From a virus (taxonomy: Duplodnaviria; Caudoviricetes), in IMG/VR virus record IMGVR_UViG_3300012940_000036, positions 1 to 47,242 of that record: DNA of 47,242 nt. One strand, written 5' to 3'. Below the pieces are notes generated by a model. That model was not told the DNA's origin and made no database searches. It saw only the letters and a list, made by a program, of their open reading frames with translations. A program made the translations under genes and the position numbers. Below are positions 533-47,242 of the stretch, in pieces (within the stretch, counting starts at the first letter, position 1; each line of letters starts with the position of its first letter).

Positions 533-547
533 TGGAACTGTTCAAGG
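533..547 (+). repeat. attL core TGGAACTGTTCAAGG, overlapping the displaced original queD start (TTG at 532)
   Basis: Identical to 47052-47066; similarity extends to 25 bp with 3 mismatches; reads L/M-E-L-F-K like the QueD N-terminus. Confidence 0.92.
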
Positions 548-36363: not shown

Positions 36364-36430
36364 GCATCACTTCTGCACCTGGGCGACCGGGTGCAGCGGG
36401 ATGCGACGAGCATCACCTTCCCCATCCTTC

Positions 36431-36453
36431 GCCCGGTTCGCCGGGCCTTTTTT
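36431..36453 (+). terminator. Intrinsic terminator
   Basis: GCCCGG-TTCG-CCGGGC plus U tract. Confidence 0.75.
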
Positions 36454-36546
36454 CGCCCTCTTTCGCATGCCGACGCATCGCCGGCAGCCGAAAGCGCGCA
36501 CGTCGCCCTCGGCCAAGGGCATTCGAACTCCTCAAAGGAAACCCCA

Positions 36547-37266
36547 ATGAAAACCTATACCCCCGAAGAGCTTGCCGAGGTCCTGGAAAAACACCGCATG
36601 TGGCTGGATGACGAAGAAGGCGGCGAGCAGGCAGACCTGCGCGGCGCCTACCTGCGCGGCGCCGACCTGAGCGACGCCAACCTGCGCGGCGCCAACCTGA
36701 GCGACGCCTACCTGAGCGACGCCAACCTGAGCGACGCCGACCTGCGCGGCGCCGACCTGAGCGACGCCTACCTGAGCGACGCCAACCTGCGCGGCGCCAA
36801 CCTGCGCGGCGCCGACCTGAGCGACGCCGACCTGAGCGACGCCAACCTGCGCGGCGCCAACCTGCGCGGCGCCTACCTGCGCGGCGCCGACCTGAGCGAC
36901 GCCGACCTGAGCGGCGCCGACCTGAGCGACGCCAACCTGAGCGGCGCCTACCTGAGCGGCGCCAACCTGAGCGGCGCCTACCTGAGCGAACTGTCTTCCA
37001 TCTGTGGCCTGACCGGCAACCTCCGCGAGGTGAAGGCCATCCAGGCGGACATCTGGCCGGTCACCTACACCGCCACCCATATGCAGATCGGCTGCCAGTT
37101 CCACCTGCTCAGCGAGTGGTGGGCCTTCAACGACGAAGAGATCGGCCGCATGGATTCGAAGGCGCTGGACTGGTGGGCGGTCTGGAAACCGATCCTGAAG
37201 CAGATCATCGACGCCTCTCCGGCCGTGCCCGGCGGCGAGAAGCCGGCCGAAACCGAAGCGGCGTAA
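36547..37266 (+). CDS. Pentapeptide-repeat protein
   Basis: 24 A(D/N/Y)L(R/S)(G/D)-type units; C-terminal MQIGCQFH domain. Confidence 0.9.
36631..36990 (+). repeat. 24 tandem 15-bp coding repeats GCCDACCTGMGCGRC
   Basis: Directly visible in the sequence. Confidence 0.95.
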
Positions 37267-39327: not shown

Positions 39328-40922
39328 TCATGCAGATCCACAACGTCACCCAGGGTGCGCCGGAGTGGCACGCCCTGCGAGCCAACTACTTCACTGCCTC
39401 CGAGGCGCCGGCGATGATGGGCGTCTCGAAGTACCAGTCGCGCAGCGACCTGCTGAAGCAGAAGAGGACCGGCATCGTACCGGAAGTCAGCGAGTCCCAG
39501 CAGCGACTGTTCGACCGCGGCCACGAGACCGAGGCTCTGGCCCGCGCGATCATTGAGGCCCAGATCGGCGAAGACCTGTTCCCGGTGGTCGCCACCGAGG
39601 GCAACCTGCTCGCCAGCGTCGACGGCATGGACATGCTCGGCACCGTATTGTTCGAGCACAAGCTCTGGAACGAAGGCCTGGCCGCCAAGGTGCGCGCCGG
39701 AGAGCTGGAGCCGCACTACTACTGGCAGCTGGAACAGCAGTTGCTGGTCACCGGCGCCGAGCGCGCCATCTTCGTCTGCTCCGACGGCACCGAGAACAAC
39801 CTGGTGCAGATGGAATATCGACCGGTCGCCGGGCGCCGTGAGCAACTGCTGGCTGGCTGGGCACAGTTCGAGCAGGACCTGGCCGAGTTCTCCCCGCAGG
39901 AAGCCAAGGTAGAAGCCGTTGGCCGTGCCCCCGGCGCTCTGCCAGCGCTGCGCATCGAAGTCACCGGCATGGTCACCGCCAGCAACCTCGATGCCTTCAA
40001 GGAACACGCCCTGGCGATCTTCAAGGGCATCAACACCGAGCTGCAGACCGACCAGGACTTTGCCAACGCCGAGCAGGCGGTGAAATGGTGCGGCGACGTC
40101 GAGGAACGCCTGGCAGCCGCCAAGCAGCATGCGCTGAGCCAGACCGAGAGCATCGACGCCCTCTTCCGCGCCATCGACGAGATTTCGGCCGAGGCCCGCG
40201 CCAAGCGCCTGGAACTCGATAAGCTGGTGAAAGCTCGGAAGGAGAAAATCCGCACCGACATCGTCACCAAGGCCAGCACCGCATTGCGTGAGCACATCGC
40301 GCAGATCAACGAGACGCTCGGCGGTCGCGTCGTTATGCCCGCCATCGCTGTCGACTTCGCCGGCGCCATCAAGGGGAAGAAGACCGTCGCCAGCCTGCAG
40401 GACGCCGCAAACACCGAGTTGGCCAGGGCGAAGATCGAAGCCAGCCAGGTGGCCGACGGCATCCGCGCCAATCTGCGCAGCTTCGACGAACTGGCTGGGG
40501 ATCATGCATCCCTGTTCGCCGACCTGCAGCAGCTGGTACTGAAGCCCAGTGATGACCTGGTGGCGACAGTAAAGTCCAGGATCACTGAGCACGAAGCCGA
40601 GCAGAAGCGCCTGGAAGAGAAGCGCGCTGCGACAGTAACGCAGCCTGCTGCCGAGCCAGTGGCGCAAGTGGCGCAGCGCCAGGCGGTGTCGGTGGCCGTA
40701 GTTGCGCCGACGGAGGACGACGGCCTGCGCATCAAGCTGGGCGACATCAACAACCGCCTAGGCTTCGCGCTGACTGCCGACTTCCTTCGCTCCATCGGCT
40801 TTGAGCCAGCCGGCCGCGAGCGTGCAGCGGTGCTGTACCGCGCCGCCGACTTCCAGCGTATTTGTGCAGCGCTGATCGCCCACATCCAGCAGGCACAGGC
40901 CGGGCAGCAGGTCGCAGCATGA
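39324..40922 (+). CDS. YqaJ / lambda-exonuclease-like protein with long coiled-coil C-terminus
   Basis: QGAPEWHALR, TASEA, ASVDG, FEHK and YYWQLEQQL motifs. Confidence 0.9.
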   Translation: MIMQIHNVTQGAPEWHALRANYFTASEAPAMMGVSKYQSRSDLLKQKRTGIVPEVSESQQRLFDRGHETEALARAIIEAQIGEDLFPVVATEGNLLASVDGMDMLGTVLFEHKLWNEGLAAKVRAGELEPHYYWQLEQQLLVTGAERAIFVCSDGTENNLVQMEYRPVAGRREQLLAGWAQFEQDLAEFSPQEAKVEAVGRAPGALPALRIEVTGMVTASNLDAFKEHALAIFKGINTELQTDQDFANAEQAVKWCGDVEERLAAAKQHALSQTESIDALFRAIDEISAEARAKRLELDKLVKARKEKIRTDIVTKASTALREHIAQINETLGGRVVMPAIAVDFAGAIKGKKTVASLQDAANTELARAKIEASQVADGIRANLRSFDELAGDHASLFADLQQLVLKPSDDLVATVKSRITEHEAEQKRLEEKRAATVTQPAAEPVAQVAQRQAVSVAVVAPTEDDGLRIKLGDINNRLGFALTADFLRSIGFEPAGRERAAVLYRAADFQRICAALIAHIQQAQAGQQVAA

Positions 40923-40977
40923 GCATGATCCCCATCGACTACCGCACACGTCATCCGCTGGAAGATCGCCGGGAGCA

Positions 40978-41005
40978 ACTGGCCGGCCGGCATGATCGCC
41001 GACAT
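40978..41005 (+). repeat. 28-bp direct repeat, copy 1
   Basis: ACTGGCCGGCCGGCATGATCGCCGACAT is identical to 45343-45370. Confidence 0.9.
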
Positions 41006-41085
41006 GACCATGGGTAAGCGACGCCTCCCCTGACTATCACGCAACCCACTGCTCTCGCGGCGTGGCTGCGCAGCCTGGAGAGACC

Positions 41086-41445
41086 ATGACCGAGCACAAC
41101 ATCGTCAGCATCAGCGGCGGAAAGGACCATGTCGGGCCGTCCGACTCCATTCCAACTGCCAGCGGCGCGCCAACGCACAGGGCCATCATGAATCTGAATC
41201 TCAACATCTACCGCCACACCTTCGTTGCCAAGTGCCCCGCGGATGGTGAGCAGATCATCTACAGGCTGGAGATCCGCTCGGCGATGATGATTCGCGTCGA
41301 GCACATCCGTACCGCCACCGCGTTGATCAAATGTGGCTTCCAGGAAGAGATCGCGGACCGCCTGCAGGATCAACTCGGCGGCGAACAACGCATCGTCGGC
41401 TTGCACCAGGGCGTCGAGGTCGAAACCGTGAGGTTGCCAGCGTGA
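41086..41445 (+). CDS. QueF-like (QueF-L type) single T-fold protein, fused to a PP-loop remnant; alternative start at 41188
   Basis: CP...Y.LEI...VE...QEEIA...GVEVETV spacing resembles archaeal QueF-L (CP, E, HEE, GVEVE); coupled to a TGT-like gene. Confidence 0.6.
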   Translation: MTEHNIVSISGGKDHVGPSDSIPTASGAPTHRAIMNLNLNIYRHTFVAKCPADGEQIIYRLEIRSAMMIRVEHIRTATALIKCGFQEEIADRLQDQLGGEQRIVGLHQGVEVETVRLPA

Positions 41446-42170
41446 TGATTCACTACCACGGCACCCCAATCGGTGGCACTCGCCAGGACGCCGCGCGTTT
41501 CCTCGCTGGGCGGCATGCCTTGGTTCCGTTCCCGCGCCAGGACGATATGGGCATCGTCGCCGACACCTGCCAGAGCTTCTGTTTCGACAACGGTGCTTTT
41601 TCGGTCTGGAAGCAGGGCGGCACCCTCGACGTCGACGGGTACATCCGCTGGGTAGAGAACTGGCGCCAGCACCCCGGGTTCGACTGGGCGCTGATCCCCG
41701 ACGTAATCGACGGCGATGAAGAGGCCAACGACCAACTACTCGAACAGTGGCCAGCGCACCTGCCTGGCGTCCCGGTCTGGCATCTGCACGAATCCCTGGA
41801 ACGCCTGCAAAGATTGGCAAGCGCGTGGCGCACTGTTGCCCTGGGCAGTTCCGGCCAATGGGCGACACCCGGCACGGCGGCTTGGTGGAAACGCATTGCC
41901 AGCGCGATGGACGTCATTTGCGATGCCCACGGCCGGCCGGTCTGCCGGCTGCACGGCCTGCGGATGCTCGATCCGCAGATTTTCAGTCGCCTGCCGTTCG
42001 CCAGTGCGGACAGCACGAACGCGGCAGTCAACGGCGGCAGCGTCTCCAGATTCGGCATGTACGTGCCGCCTACAGCAGGCCAGCGCGCGGCAGTGATCGC
42101 TGATCGCATCGAAGCCCACAACTCAGCCCCGGTCTGGACGCGTAGTGGCCAAGCCGAACTGGCCATTTAG
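41445..42170 (+). CDS. DpdA/TGT-like base transglycosylase (candidate 7-deazaguanine DNA insertion enzyme)
   Basis: Ordered motifs DNGAFS, PDVI, VPVWH, VALGS, LHGL and SADST parallel DpdA-type DSGAFS, LDVI, PVFH, ALGG, HGFG and SVDST. Confidence 0.75.
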   Translation: MIHYHGTPIGGTRQDAARFLAGRHALVPFPRQDDMGIVADTCQSFCFDNGAFSVWKQGGTLDVDGYIRWVENWRQHPGFDWALIPDVIDGDEEANDQLLEQWPAHLPGVPVWHLHESLERLQRLASAWRTVALGSSGQWATPGTAAWWKRIASAMDVICDAHGRPVCRLHGLRMLDPQIFSRLPFASADSTNAAVNGGSVSRFGMYVPPTAGQRAAVIADRIEAHNSAPVWTRSGQAELAI

Positions 42171-42333
42171 GTGAGGAGCTCGAAGCATGAGTATGCCCGC
42201 GGCCTACTACAAGCGATGCGCCAGACGCAATCGAATCCAAGCCCATCGCCTCCTCCTTTATCCGGCCCCATGCCGGGCCATCCGAACCTACCCCACTCCC
42301 CGCCATTGCGCCACTACGGCGCGAGGACATCTC

Positions 42334-43050
42334 ATGAAGACCTACGAACAGCTGCGCGAAGAGCGCCGAGCTGAAGCAGCCGAGTACCTGAAGAATCACC
42401 AGTATCGCCCCCTGGTAGATGCCGATGACGTGAAGGTCTGGCGCTGCCAGCAGCCGGGCACCAGCGCCTATGCCTTCGACATCATGCTCACCCGCTACGG
42501 CATCGCCGTCGTGGGCGACATCGCCAATCTGACCTTCGGTGTTGGACTGAGCTACGGCCTCGACTTCCTGTCCGGCGACGACGTTGGCTACTACATCCAT
42601 TCGAAGCTCGACGAGAAGTGCAAGACCAGGGAATTCGACGAGGCAGCATTCCGTGGCGCACTCGTCACCGGGATCTGCCAGCGCATCGCCGATGAGGCTG
42701 AATACGACGCTTATGAAGAGCTCCCCGCATGGGTGCGCGAGGAGAAGGAGCGCGGCCCTGACGGCAGCCACTGGAAGGAGCTGCGCGATTTCATCTGCAC
42801 CGAGGCCCGCAAGAACGATGCCGACGATAAGTGGGGGGAGTGGGACGACCTGCTGCGCGAAGCCAGTGACATTGGCGATGAGCACTACGCAGGCGCCTTC
42901 ATGAACGAGCACTGCGAGACGCTAGGCCTCGGGCCTGACTGGTGGGAGATCAGAACCACCACGCCGGCCGAGTCCCTGATGCGCGAGCTCTACATGATCC
43001 GCCACGCCGCGCTCGCCATCCTGGCGCAGAAGCAAGCCGCCGCTGCCTGA
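42334..43050 (+). CDS. Hypothetical protein
   Basis: GAGGA RBS; coding-like codon usage. Confidence 0.8.
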   Translation: MKTYEQLREERRAEAAEYLKNHQYRPLVDADDVKVWRCQQPGTSAYAFDIMLTRYGIAVVGDIANLTFGVGLSYGLDFLSGDDVGYYIHSKLDEKCKTREFDEAAFRGALVTGICQRIADEAEYDAYEELPAWVREEKERGPDGSHWKELRDFICTEARKNDADDKWGEWDDLLREASDIGDEHYAGAFMNEHCETLGLGPDWWEIRTTTPAESLMRELYMIRHAALAILAQKQAAAA

Positions 43051-43115
43051 CCCTCCGCAACAAACTGCCCTTTTCCGGAAACTCTTTCCCGCGCCAGCAG
43101 GCGCAAGGATTCGTC

Positions 43116-43337
43116 ATGCTCGACAAATCAGCCTTCCAGCGCTCAGCCGAGGCGCTGGTAGCGAACCCACACGCGCATTACCAGGCCCAGTTGGAAGAAG
43201 CCCTGTTCCACGAGCGGGCCCTGGACCTGATCCGGCGCCTGAAGGTCTATGCCGACCGCAGCGCTTCACCGATAGCCCATGAACTCTGCGTTGAAGCGAC
43301 TGAGTTCGTGGCCAAGCATACGAGGACTAAACCATGA
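43116..43337 (+). CDS. Hypothetical protein
   Basis: AAGGA RBS; coupled to the next gene. Confidence 0.65.
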   Translation: MLDKSAFQRSAEALVANPHAHYQAQLEEALFHERALDLIRRLKVYADRSASPIAHELCVEATEFVAKHTRTKP

Positions 43338-44386
43338 CCATGGCAATGGACCTGATCCGCCACATCGCCGGCCTCTACAGCGGCAAGGCCATCAAAGGCG
43401 ACTTCACCCAGGTCTACATCACCGGGAACGAAATCTGGATGGCGCAGCAAATCCTCGCCTCGCAGCAGGGGGAGCAGTGCCCGCAGTGCGACGGCTCAGG
43501 CAAGGTATCTGACAGCGACGGCTGCGGCGTCTGGTACATCGACTGCCAGACCTGCGCCAAGAAGCACCCCGAGCAGGCAGAGGGCGCGCAGGGGGAGCGG
43601 GAGGCGCTTTCCGCGTATTGCGCTTGGTATCGGGGAGTGTTTGGCAGCGCCCCATTCCACGCGAAGGAAAACCAAGAGTTCGCGGCGTTCAAAGCCGGGG
43701 CAGCCTGGCAAGCCCGCGCCGCCCTGGCGCAACCCTCCCCGGCGCCGGAGCTGGAGCGGCCGGAGGTGGTTGGCACGTTGCTTATCGGCGAGCACTACGA
43801 CGGTTCGAAAAGTGTGGATGCAACCAGGAGCTGGCACACGGAAGGCCTAGAGATTGGAGCACACCACTTGATGACCGTCGCCCAGCATGACCGCATCGTC
43901 GGGGCGCTGCGGGCTGAGTCGGCCAAGCGCGGTGTAAGACTTTCCGAAATGCACGAAGATATTCGCGTCATCACCGAAGAGCGCGACGCCGCCCAGGCCA
44001 GGGTGGCGGAGCTTGAGCAATCCACCCAAAACCTGCGCCAGGACCGCAAGCGCCTGACTTCTCAGGCGGTCCAGCATCGCGACGAAATTGAAGCGCTACG
44101 AGCCAGGCTATCCGACCTGGGGAACCAGGTACCGGAGGGCTATGCACTTATTCCGACCCGCCTGCTACTCGACAAGGAGCTTATTGAGTGCATCGCCTTC
44201 CACTGTAGCGATGGAGGCGGATCCTATGGCGACTACCAGGACGGCATCCTCTTCATCGGCGAGATCACCGACGACGATGGCCGGCAGGTTCATGGTCTGC
44301 ACCTGGCCTGCGCCGAGTGCGAGGAAGATGGCTACACGACTCTGGTTGAGTTTGCCGCCGCGCCGGCACAGGGAGGTGAGTTATGA
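43334..44386 (+). CDS. Mosaic early protein (CxxC pairs, Ea22-like coiled coil)
   Basis: CPQCDGSG..CQTC, WQARAAL linker and ERDAAQARVAELE coiled coil. Confidence 0.75.
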   Translation: MTMAMDLIRHIAGLYSGKAIKGDFTQVYITGNEIWMAQQILASQQGEQCPQCDGSGKVSDSDGCGVWYIDCQTCAKKHPEQAEGAQGEREALSAYCAWYRGVFGSAPFHAKENQEFAAFKAGAAWQARAALAQPSPAPELERPEVVGTLLIGEHYDGSKSVDATRSWHTEGLEIGAHHLMTVAQHDRIVGALRAESAKRGVRLSEMHEDIRVITEERDAAQARVAELEQSTQNLRQDRKRLTSQAVQHRDEIEALRARLSDLGNQVPEGYALIPTRLLLDKELIECIAFHCSDGGGSYGDYQDGILFIGEITDDDGRQVHGLHLACAECEEDGYTTLVEFAAAPAQGGEL

Positions 44387-44859
44387 GCGAAGTGAAGACC
44401 TACAGGTTCCCTGACGACACCTTCAAGACTCACATGCGTTACGTGCTGGCATCTGACTACTCCAAGCTCGAAGCCGAAGCCCAGGCGCTCAGGGAGGAAG
44501 TCGCGCGCGGTGAACGGCACCGCAACGATCAGGCAGACCAGATCGTGTCGCTGCGCACCGAAGCCGCAGCCCTGCGCGCAAGGGTGGTGGTTGTGCCCGA
44601 GCGCATGCCGCGTAGCTCTGACATCGCTTCGATCTATCAGCACAACACTGGCTGGAACGCCTGCCTCGACGAACTGGCGCGCCTCAACGGCAAGGTGGTG
44701 AGCGAGGGGCTGTTGCGGCGCTGCGAACAGATGCTCCAGTTCTACTTCGAGTATCTGTGCGACGAGTCGGCAGAAGAAGGCGACATCGCCATGGCTGCCG
44801 AGGCGCGGGATGAACTGCGCGCCCTGCTCGACGAGGGGAAGGAGAACGGCCATGCCTGA
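44383..44859 (+). CDS. Ead/Ea22-like hypothetical protein
   Basis: YVLASDY, coiled coil and GWNACLDE modules. Confidence 0.7.
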   Translation: MSEVKTYRFPDDTFKTHMRYVLASDYSKLEAEAQALREEVARGERHRNDQADQIVSLRTEAAALRARVVVVPERMPRSSDIASIYQHNTGWNACLDELARLNGKVVSEGLLRRCEQMLQFYFEYLCDESAEEGDIAMAAEARDELRALLDEGKENGHA

Positions 44860-45139
44860 GCTGAAGCCCATCGCCTGGGCGACGGTCTACACCCGTGCCG
44901 GAAACGAGGATCGCATCGAGATTGGTGATGCCAACCCTGTGCGGGAATGCAATGCCGAACTCTGGGGCTGGCAGCACCGGCGCGTTCCGCTGGTGGAAAT
45001 CCCCGCCGACCAGGTGCTGGTGCCAATCGAGCTATTGAAGCGCTTGCAGGATCACATCGAGTACGACGCGATTGGATCACCAAGTGCATCCATTGCATCC
45101 GATCTTGCCGACGAACTCCGCGCCCTCCTCCAATCCTAA
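44852..45139 (+). CDS. Hypothetical protein
   Basis: AAGGAG RBS; coupled ORF. Confidence 0.7.
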   Translation: MPELKPIAWATVYTRAGNEDRIEIGDANPVRECNAELWGWQHRRVPLVEIPADQVLVPIELLKRLQDHIEYDAIGSPSASIASDLADELRALLQS

Positions 45140-45179
45140 CCATTCCCCTTAACCGCACACCCATATGGGAGGCATTACC

Positions 45180-45623
45180 GTGCCTGACATTCAAGCAACC
45201 TACATCGAAGTGAGCGCCGAAGTGCGCTATTGGGAAGACGCCAAGATCAACGGGCAGGAGGACAGTGACGGCTCTCTGGTGCCGTTCCGTCGTGACGACC
45301 TCTGGTGTCCAGTGATCCGCCTGGAAGATGGCATGGTGATGGACTGGCCGGCCGGCATGATCGCCGACATCCACTACAAGGTCTGCGACGCAGGCCAGTA
45401 CTGGCTGCTCGACGACAACCGGCAACGTGTCGCCCAGTGGGCCGGCTACTACGTACCGGACGACTTCCTCTGCCCGACCGAGAACGGCTATGGCGACTAC
45501 ATCATCTTCAAGGTGGGCGTCGATGGCCTGATCAAGAGTTGGAGCAAGCCCGAGATCGAATGGGGTGGCCGCGAGGATGATCAGGAAGGCTGGAAGCGCC
45601 TTGAGGAGAACGACCGTGCCTGA
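45180..45623 (+). CDS. Hypothetical protein
   Basis: GGAGG RBS with GTG start; VRYWED and YKVCDAG motifs. Confidence 0.8.
   Translation: MPDIQATYIEVSAEVRYWEDAKINGQEDSDGSLVPFRRDDLWCPVIRLEDGMVMDWPAGMIADIHYKVCDAGQYWLLDDNRQRVAQWAGYYVPDDFLCPTENGYGDYIIFKVGVDGLIKSWSKPEIEWGGREDDQEGWKRLEENDRA
45343..45370 (+). repeat. 28-bp direct repeat, copy 2
   Basis: Identical to 40978-41005. Confidence 0.9.
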
Positions 45624-45885
45624 CGAAATTTCCTATGAATCCGAACTGGCCAGCAAGTGCCAGGGTGCCGCCCAGTGCCTTAGCTACAACGGCCCGAAGC
45701 ATGAGGCCGAGGCGAAGCACGTCCTGCATGAAGCATCGCACGCGCTCGACAAACATGCTGTGCGCGTGTCCGAGGACTTCCCTGGTCTTCTGATAACCAA
45801 TGCTCGCGGCGAGTCTCGGTATATGACATGGCGTGAGCGTCTGGCCCGCTGGCTGCTCAAGGGTGCCCTGGAGATTCGGCCATGA
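45616..45885 (+). CDS. Hypothetical protein
   Basis: GAGGAG RBS with GTG start. Confidence 0.7.
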   Translation: MPDEISYESELASKCQGAAQCLSYNGPKHEAEAKHVLHEASHALDKHAVRVSEDFPGLLITNARGESRYMTWRERLARWLLKGALEIRP

Positions 45886-46109
45886 CCGACATTCGAGAAG
45901 AGTTTGAAGCGTGGCACCACGCTGAGTTCGGCTACTGCATCTCTGAGGAAGATGATGCTTGGAACGCCGGGGAATGCGCCAAGCGCTGGGAAACCTGGCA
46001 AGCCAGCCGCGCGGCTCTGAAGGTGGAGCTGCCGGACTGGGAGTTCCCGCATTACTCCGAGATAGTCGAAGCCCTCCAGCAAGCCGGAATCGAGGTGAAG
46101 CAGCCATGA
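45882..46109 (+). CDS. Hypothetical protein
   Basis: IREEFEAW...WQASRAAL phage module; coupled. Confidence 0.72.
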   Translation: MTDIREEFEAWHHAEFGYCISEEDDAWNAGECAKRWETWQASRAALKVELPDWEFPHYSEIVEALQQAGIEVKQP

Positions 46110-46471
46110 CCGACCGTGAACTCCTGGAGCTGGCGGCGAAGGCGGCTGGATATCAGTTCTCTACTTCGATGCGCAGCCTTTCCCAGCCGCCAGTTCCGGT
46201 AATCCTCGCAGAGTCAGGGCGCTGGAAGCAGTGGGATCCGCTGCATGACGATGGCGATGCGCTGCGCCTGGCGGCAAAACTCAAATTGGCAGTCGCATAT
46301 ACGCTGGACGAAATTCCTTGCGAGCCAAGCAAGTGCATGGTCGGCAAGAAACCTTGGAATGGCGGAGAGCCAATCTGCTGGGAGCGCTTCCAGGGAGACC
46401 AGGAACGCTATGCAGCAACTCGTCGCGCCATCGTCCGCGCCGCGGCCGAGGTCGGGAGGCAGATGGGATGA
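46106..46471 (+). CDS. Hypothetical protein
   Basis: MTDRELLELAAKAAG and WDPLHDDGDALRLA phage motifs. Confidence 0.8.
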   Translation: MTDRELLELAAKAAGYQFSTSMRSLSQPPVPVILAESGRWKQWDPLHDDGDALRLAAKLKLAVAYTLDEIPCEPSKCMVGKKPWNGGEPICWERFQGDQERYAATRRAIVRAAAEVGRQMG

Positions 46472-46722
46472 GCGAATGGCAGCCGATTGATACCGCGCCG
46501 AGGGACGGAACCGAGATCATCCTGCGCCGAGGAGCTCGCGTGAGCTCCGGCGCCTGGATTGAGTGGAGCAAGTCCGCGGCAGAACACCACTCCACAACCG
46601 GCGAATACCTCGGTCAGGTCGAGTACGACAGCGGAGCTAACTGGGGGTCCTGGGATGGCGGGTTCACTGAAGAAGAACCCCCAACCCACTGGCAGCCCCT
46701 CCCCGCCCCACCCTCCGCATAA
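46468..46722 (+). CDS. DUF551-like protein
   Basis: WQPIDTAPRDG...PTHWQPLPAPP. Confidence 0.82.
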   Translation: MSEWQPIDTAPRDGTEIILRRGARVSSGAWIEWSKSAAEHHSTTGEYLGQVEYDSGANWGSWDGGFTEEEPPTHWQPLPAPPSA

Positions 46723-46774
46723 CCCAACCCCATTCCACCATCGCCGGCCAGCGCCGGCGCGATGAGGTATTGCC

Positions 46775-47017
46775 ATGAGCGCAGCAGAGAAAATCGATCG
46801 CTTCATGCGCATCGAAGAAGTACTCCACACCACCGGCCTGGGGAAGAACACCCTGTATCGTCGGATTCGCGAAGGCTCGTTCCCGAAACAGGTTAGAATA
46901 GGGCCCAACTCGGTCGCCTGGCGCCAGTCTGATGTCGAAGACTGGATGCGGCGAATCAGCCCCAGCAACGACCAATCAGTACATCAATCAGTACACCAGC
47001 TGCGCGAAATCCTCTGA
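46775..47017 (+). CDS. AlpA-family excisionase / recombination directionality factor
   Basis: FMRIEEVLHTTGLGKNTLYRRIREGSFPKQVRIG; adjacent to attR. Confidence 0.9.
   Translation: MSAAEKIDRFMRIEEVLHTTGLGKNTLYRRIREGSFPKQVRIGPNSVAWRQSDVEDWMRRISPSNDQSVHQSVHQLREIL
46972..46997 (+). promoter_or_regulatory. Integrase arm-type sites, right arm (CAATCAGTACA twice)
   Basis: Tandem repeat, 22/26 identical to 662-687. Confidence 0.7.
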
Positions 47018-47050
47018 GGTCAGCGCGCCATCTGCATCACAGGAAATTTC

Positions 47051-47242
47051 GTGGAACTGTTCAAGGAATTCACTTTCGAGTCCGCCCACCGCCTGCCCCA
47101 CGTCCCGGAGGGCCACAAGTGCGGCCGCTTGCACGGCCACTCCTTCCGCGTGGCGCTGTACATCGAGGGCGAGGTCGACCCGCATACCGGCTGGATCCGC
47201 GACTTCTCCGAGATCAAGCAGATCTTCAAGCCGATCTACGAA
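47051..47242 (+). CDS. queD: Host 6-carboxy-5,6,7,8-tetrahydropterin synthase, 3'-truncated by the window
   Basis: Hand translation [32 protein letters not shown] with the CxxxHGH motif; phage-derived AGGA RBS and GTG. Confidence 0.95.
47052..47066 (+). repeat. attR core TGGAACTGTTCAAGG
   Basis: Identical to 533-547. Confidence 0.92.

Follow-up and report, generated by a model that had tools for sequence, protein, structure and literature searches.

A stretch of viral DNA of 47,242 nucleotides (hereafter the window) carries two overlapping genes, one encoding a new member of a published clade of DpdA enzymes and the other an 85-residue protein with a minimal T-fold. The new part is the small protein, together with a split of its family between aspartate and isoleucine at one predicted active-site position. 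The pair is laid out as follows:

41188..41445, + strand: small gene, minimal T-fold protein (85 aa), QueF-L-like, Ile subfamily, phrog_37496 (unknown function)
41443..41447, + strand: TGATG stop/start overlap of the small gene and dpdA, probably coupling their translation
41445..42170, + strand: dpdA, TGT-fold guanine transglycosylase (241 aa), "DpdA-only" clade, phrog_887

This pair is real and beyond chance, since both genes are conserved, both products fold confidently (AlphaFold pLDDT of 94 for the small protein and 89 for DpdA), and the stop/start overlap (here the TGATG noted in the initial annotation, with one base common to the two genes) recurs in 58 of the 61 paired loci among the closest. 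Contigs from a second study (run X8, low depth) span 41682-42238 with zero differences. Seen from the small gene, dpdA adjoins it in 103/103 close loci, starting at most 10 bases downstream in 79/80 viral and 23/23 genome loci (52 bases in the last), counts that are not independent because these loci include contigs common to other sets and come mostly from Pseudomonas. The pair is also found in Microcystis phage Mae-JY30 (in reversed order), in Rhizobium phage RHph_X2_30, and in a cultured phage, Pseudomonas phage Epa33. Seen from DpdA, the small gene is optional: it is found in 61 of the 80 closest loci, in 12/80 Mae-JY30-type loci and in 0/80 BTP1-type loci, and did not turn up in the whole records of MED16, 7-11, BTP1, SfI and HK106 (0/5; positive controls 3/3). 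Pfam, NCBIfam and PADLOC gave no name for either protein, and PDB searches by single sequence and by close profile returned nothing relevant.

A probable guanine transglycosylase of the DpdA-only clade

Judged by its sequence, the 241-aa protein is a member of the published "DpdA-only" clade, the third group of Hutinet 2019 (a gamma-proteobacterial singleton cluster), with Salmonella phage 7-11, phages BTP1, SfI, HK106, SEN1 and PEAT2, and Pantoea phage MED16. It matches phrog_887 (E 4e-71), counts 7352 of 8000 scored candidates as relatives, and matches 235 records of annotated phages, reaching proven DpdA1 enzymes such as that of Iggy (E 8e-5). Its identity to the DpdA of 7-11, MED16, HK106, SfI and BTP1 is 37-47% (E 1e-64 to 2e-30), and it has in common with the clade its DNGAF, PD, WH, HGLR and ADS motifs and the absence of preQ0 synthesis genes beside dpdA (tblastn with the Iggy genes found no queC, folE or second queD in the window). 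Supplementary Data 1 of PMC6884629 tabulates BTP1, SfI, HK106, SEN1, PEAT2 and 7-11 as having DpdA and no other pathway gene; MED16 is the only one of the five compared phages outside that table.

The TGT/DpdA barrel that had been proposed is borne out by Foldseek and AlphaFold, the model being a TIM barrel with TGT-fold proteins as best matches. Foldseek ranked a TGT at the top (E 2.6e-4), and all 50 top VIA rows were TGT-fold (Z 13.9-15.0, rmsd 3.0-3.9, 209-229 residues aligned). Counting against a DpdA role, tryptophan synthase alpha ranked close by Foldseek, and the best VIA row was Cap10, a protein of TGT fold whose ligand is a modified protein. The motifs DNGAFS (48-53), PVWH (110-113), HGLRM (170-174) and SADST (187-191) read in the initial annotation are all there, and a third conserved aspartate, D86 (PDV), adds to its list. 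Across 48 DpdA sequences D48, D86, H113, L172 and D189 are invariant, and F52 is kept in at least 90%; mapped by order rather than by superposition, these conserved residues follow the site described for bacterial DpdA (Asp95/Phe99/Asp130/His181/Leu236/Asp256; PMC10164549). The structural zinc site of TGT and bacterial DpdA (CxCxxC...H) occurs in 0/48 sequences, and the protein is therefore not a bacterial DpdA or a TGT proper. DNG and HGLR had been taken for special, divergent motifs, which does not hold: DNGAF and HGLR are common to 7-11, MED16, BTP1 and HK106 (Iggy has DSG and HGFG instead) and thus mark a known clade. A new chemistry signalled by these motifs, which are normal for DpdA-only phages, was rejected.

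This DpdA probably puts some 7-deazaguanine into DNA. For the two clade members with DNA measurements in the literature searched, dADG is reported at 50 vs. <6 dPreQ0 per million nt in 7-11 and at 354 vs. 3 in MED16, where the level of 354 gave little restriction protection. Among phages that modify their DNA with deazaguanines, the DpdA-only group is both the largest and the least explained, and how its members obtain the amide base is posed as a question in PMC6884629 and PMC8306585.

Besides the small gene, the clade has other partners, Vut_1 transporters and a QueD-like T-fold, which look like handlers of the precursor. The Vut_1 importer is found in 6/19 of the closest DpdA loci without the small gene vs. 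0/61 with it, the six loci not being independent since they fall mostly in one clade, and a QueD-like gene is found in 13/80 Mae-JY30-type loci. A DpdA tree (84 rows after dereplication of 263 sequences, with the window and Iggy added) shows the small gene, Vut_1 and QueD-like partners scattered, as expected of exchangeable accessories. A C5 methyltransferase lies near DpdA in 23/80 loci, and is not in the corresponding slot of the window. Separately, we observed that in L083:3705-4726 (Caulobacter phage DMCA) and at 13 of loci L199-L278 this DpdA clade has, coupled to it or nearby, a QueD-like T-fold of 98 aa that lacks the catalytic Cys and may be DpdL-like.

The small T-fold protein and its two subfamilies

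The small protein matches only phrog_37496, and its model is a bare T-fold of two strands, two helices and two strands. The QueF-L-like fold proposed for it agrees with the Foldseek search of the AlphaFold model, where QueF-L was the top match (E 3.6e-4), as it was by VIA (Z 12.6, rmsd 2.5, 85 residues aligned, followed by GTP cyclohydrolase I at Z 11.2 and QueF at Z 9.7) and with a family profile to which distant members had been added (E 0.019). In the ESM Atlas the nearest clusters were unnamed viral ones (0.95-0.96), the QueF cluster at 0.88 being a lead only. All four motifs that had been listed are in place, i.e., CP (16-17), VE (37-38), QEE (52-54) and GVEVE (75-79), and so is the replacement of the catalytic Asp: Ile23 lies seven residues past Cys16 and is put on QueF-L Asp28 by the profile alignment.

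Compared with QueF-L of Pyrobaculum calidifontis (PDB 5JYX, 5K0P), the protein has the single T-fold, the thioimide Cys (C16 for Cys21) and the two base-binding Glu (E38 for Glu46, and E53 within Q52-E53 for His62-Glu63), and like QueF-L has no NADPH motif. It differs in the general acid/base Asp at Cys+7 (Ile23 for Asp28) and in His73 for Tyr90, is ~25 residues shorter, and is phage-borne and coupled to dpdA, whereas QueF-L acts on archaeal tRNA. With QueF (B. subtilis type, and the phage QueF of Dp-1, phiSM and VH7D) it has in common the T-fold, the Cys, the VE and the F-H/Q-E pocket residues: V37-E38 and F51-Q52-E53 correspond to the preQ0 pocket Val77-Glu78 and Phe95-His96-Glu97, of which His96 is reported to act via its backbone (PMC13740343). 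Unlike QueF, it has Ile23 at the catalytic aspartate (Asp62/Asp197), and the motif for binding of NADPH, E(S/L)K(S/A)hK(L/Y)(Y/F/W), was found in 0/151 small-protein sequences. The protein would thus be a candidate preQ0 binder of QueF-L type that falls outside both QueF-L and QueF. Its net charge is -1, and the family medians are -3 and -3 (a crude proxy for surface charge). QueF-L reportedly has a positively charged surface that binds nucleic acid, and forms a homodecamer whose sites lie between subunits.

Other accessories are known to alter the C7 group of the 7-deazaguanine used by DpdA, i.e., DpdC of the bacterial Dpd system and DpdL of phage phiST. In contrast to the reading favoured below, DpdC works on DNA-bound preQ0, and, with no PADLOC match, homology of the small protein to it was not apparent; DpdL resembles QueD and has a His motif, whereas the small protein has no QueD/DpdL zinc motif (CxxxHGH or LxxxHRH) and no PTPS match in Pfam.

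A profile search gathered 952 clusters of the small-protein family at 50% identity, the best 150 of which form the basis of the residue counts and the tree. Among these 150, C16 is conserved in 148, E38 in 149, and E53 and H73 in all, and 142 carry Asp or Asn at Cys+3. The Cys+7 residue is Asp in 54, with Ile, Val or Met in the other 96, and position 74 varies with it (Ser/Thr in 51/54 Asp-type vs. 4/96 Ile-type sequences). When columns 23 and 74 are left out of the tree, the Asp/non-Asp label switches once, vs. at least 36 times in shuffles; the Asp clade itself is modestly supported (0.64). These patterns point to two subfamilies, one that keeps the catalytic Asp and one, that of the window, with Ile and linked changes. 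In a search for Asp-type genes, 24 of 25 loci had the Asp and 21 a neighbour matching the DpdA profile; the other four had in its place a phrog_15826 protein, which is probably a more distant DpdA. A Vut_1-like transporter gene was found in 11 of the 25, three of these eleven having built the profile. As observations in their own right, three-gene cassettes (L361:2408-3731, L362:2254-3776, L363:2561-3785 and L380) combine a phrog_15826 protein (DNG and PD motifs), an Asp-type small T-fold and a Vut_1 transporter, and in a predicted 185-aa protein (P0381) an Ile-type small T-fold is joined to a domain that its His motif, read by eye, marks as QueD-like.

No description of the small-protein family was found in the literature searched, which leaves most subscription journals outside; data tables of Cui et al. 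may list such phages. Likewise, the accessible parts of PMC6884629 and bioRxiv 2023.04.13.536721 report no validated QueF-L in phages. The premise of the initial annotation that DpdA with QueF-L yields dG+ in some phages is not borne out by the same sources: Dp-1, annotated with QueF-L, had dPreQ1 and no dG+ (PMC6884629), and no phage QueF aligned with QueF-L (bioRxiv 2023.04.13.536721). For HVTV-1, only trace dG+ is reported, not assigned to any source.

What the pair may make

The reading that we favour, plausible though tentative, is that free host preQ0 is bound by the small protein, which converts it by hydration into ADG, the amide base; insertion of ADG by DpdA would then give dADG. The host would supply the preQ0, no precursor genes having been found in the prophage, and the small protein would form an oligomer whose pockets lie at the subunit interfaces, like those of other T-folds. 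There preQ0 would be held as a free base in the conserved pocket and Cys16 would attack its nitrile, with the lost acid replaced by Asp19 (Cys+3) or the invariant His73, perhaps via a metal. Water, rather than ammonia or NADPH, would resolve the adduct to ADG, and DpdA would swap a small share of the guanines of the phage DNA for it, which could serve as partial protection from restriction or from another host DNA sensor.

That the base is reshaped before its insertion is likely because the nearest fold is archaeosine synthase and the catalytic Asp of that enzyme is absent. Hydration of free preQ0 is favoured because the amide is what has been measured in the clade, the nitrile being nearly absent from DNA, because other partners of the clade appear to handle the precursor, because the family is net acidic (which makes the free base a better fit than DNA) and has no NADPH motif, and because His73 and the Cys+3 residue offer a substitute acid or metal site. 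The initial annotation had proposed dG+ or a different derivative: dG+ now looks doubtful, with Ile at Asp28 and clade DNA nearly without dPreQ0, and a different derivative fits better. Against hydration, 7-11 and MED16 make dADG without a detectable small gene, so that the gene is not needed for the amide; the adduct of QueF-L with free preQ0 is reported as stable to three ammonia sources (PMC5485725); hydrolysis of a QueF-type thioimide to the amide is not reported in the literature searched, as far as the sources were accessible; and the published dADG level of MED16 is barely protective against restriction.

Since the QueF Asp197 variants N, A and H are reported to lose all activity (PMC13740343), the Ile subfamily may be non-catalytic. 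It might then be a non-catalytic or single-turnover binder of preQ0, perhaps through a Cys adduct, which hands preQ0 to DpdA or shields it from host QueF and leaves DpdA alone to set the product as dPreQ0 or dADG. This we regard as unlikely, although the acid whose loss kills QueF is gone, the pocket residues are retained, and Vut_1 occurs among the closest loci where the small gene does not, as if both served supply (mostly in one clade): Cys16, Asp/Asn19 and His73 remain conserved, and sequences that lost the Asp also have a fixed change at position 74, more suggestive of rewiring than of decay. An amidinotransferase of QueF-L type, adding ammonia to preQ0 already inserted by DpdA to give deoxyarchaeosine, appears quite unlikely in the window and more plausible for the Asp subfamily, which has the complete Cys/Asp/Glu/Glu set. 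Three methods (Foldseek, VIA and the family profile) rank QueF-L as the closest relative of solved structure, the family has no NADPH motif, and QueF-L is described as requiring only NH4+ and working on nucleic-acid-bound preQ0 (PMC5485725), but the protein of the window has Ile for Asp28 and His for Tyr90, its family is net acidic, and the measured DNA of clade members is reported to hold almost no dPreQ0 substrate.

Two further explanations carry less weight. It is improbable that the pair makes an undescribed 7-deazaguanine derivative by a metal- or His-assisted reaction at C7. The invariant His73 is absent from QueF-L, and GTP cyclohydrolase I, the next structural match, has a zinc site built from a Cys, the residue at Cys+3 and a His close by, on strands that would match; four new derivatives are reported to have come earlier from such accessory genes, and P0381 joins a QueD-like to an Ile-type domain, but this fusion is one predicted protein. 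Very improbable is a module that leaves phage DNA unmodified, being inactive cargo or acting on tRNA, protein or the host queuosine pool. Cap10 as the top VIA row, the very low modification levels reported for the clade, with little effect on restriction, and a dADG in 7-11 and MED16 described without a genetic tie to dpdA would fit such a module; against it stand the sequence link to the proven DNA-modifying DpdA of Iggy, the dADG reported in both measured members, and the strong conservation of both genes.

Returning to a catalytic small protein, it is tempting to speculate, with somewhat more reserve than for the hydration itself, that the small genes form the first real QueF-L-like family of phages. 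The Asp subfamily would keep a QueF-L-type chemistry, and the Ile subfamily would act on preQ0 through a Cys/Asp/His site in a way new to T-folds, hydrating the nitrile or making a C7 product not described so far, so that a two-gene plug-in sets the deazaguanine in temperate-phage DNA. A T-fold of ~80 residues that is tied to DpdA in hundreds of clusters and comes as a natural Asp/Ile subfamily pair is directly testable; it could extend the T-fold superfamily by a new reaction and provide a minimal DNA-labelling kit.

The prophage and its integration at host queD

The prophage is complete and of Pseudomonas type, and the pair sits in its early region, downstream of RecT and RecE genes and ~4.6 kb ahead of an AlpA-type excisionase. 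That the phage is temperate, as had been suggested, is plain from a 15-base repeat that bounds the prophage and from an empty integration site in three runs. The att cores, and a gene remnant beside the pair, are placed as follows:

533..547, + strand: attL core, 15-base repeat
47052..47066, + strand: attR core, 15-base repeat, inside the first codons of host queD
41088..41136, + strand: 5'-end remnant of a PAPS-reductase-like gene, in frame with the small gene

Of host queD, the window holds just the 5' part. At the empty site (X6, X8 and X15) queD starts with TTG, and in the lysogen both the start codon, GTG, and what precedes it come from phage DNA, 33 bases past the excisionase stop and on the early-gene strand. 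Loci with a related integrase have a similar att core, visible in 11/80 loci, many of which have no upstream sequence. Integration at queD is confirmed but is incidental to the pair. A link between the two was rejected: this DpdA is found in only 1/40 of the records that reach 38 kb or more and carry a related integrase (62-99% integrase identity, chosen from 80 loci), and queD in the flank of only 1 of the 80 closest DpdA loci.

No sigma-70-like promoter was found in 40800-47242, where terminator-like matches are at chance level, and the RNA contigs of one metatranscriptome do not reach the pair and are uninformative on its expression. The G-dinucleotide ratios of the prophage are unremarkable (0.85-1.14).

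The remnant upstream of the pair, which we take to be PAPS-reductase-like from the motif that names this family, consists of the first codons only, which run on in frame into the small gene; databases predict a 119-aa product from this fusion (P0122). At locus L085 (3006-3995) a full-length PAPS-reductase-like gene of 329 aa occupies the place of the remnant. Such a gene was rejected as a third member of the module, being found in only 3/80 and 1/23 loci. Elsewhere in the window, an exact 28-base repeat occurs at 40978-41005 and 45343-45370, its first copy resembling a scar of the gene at 45165-45623; a run of Lar-like restriction-alleviation genes (phrog_3592, weak phrog_599) lies downstream of the pair at 43334-45139; and a pentapeptide-repeat protein is encoded at 36391-37266, with ~23 registers of a 15-base unit.
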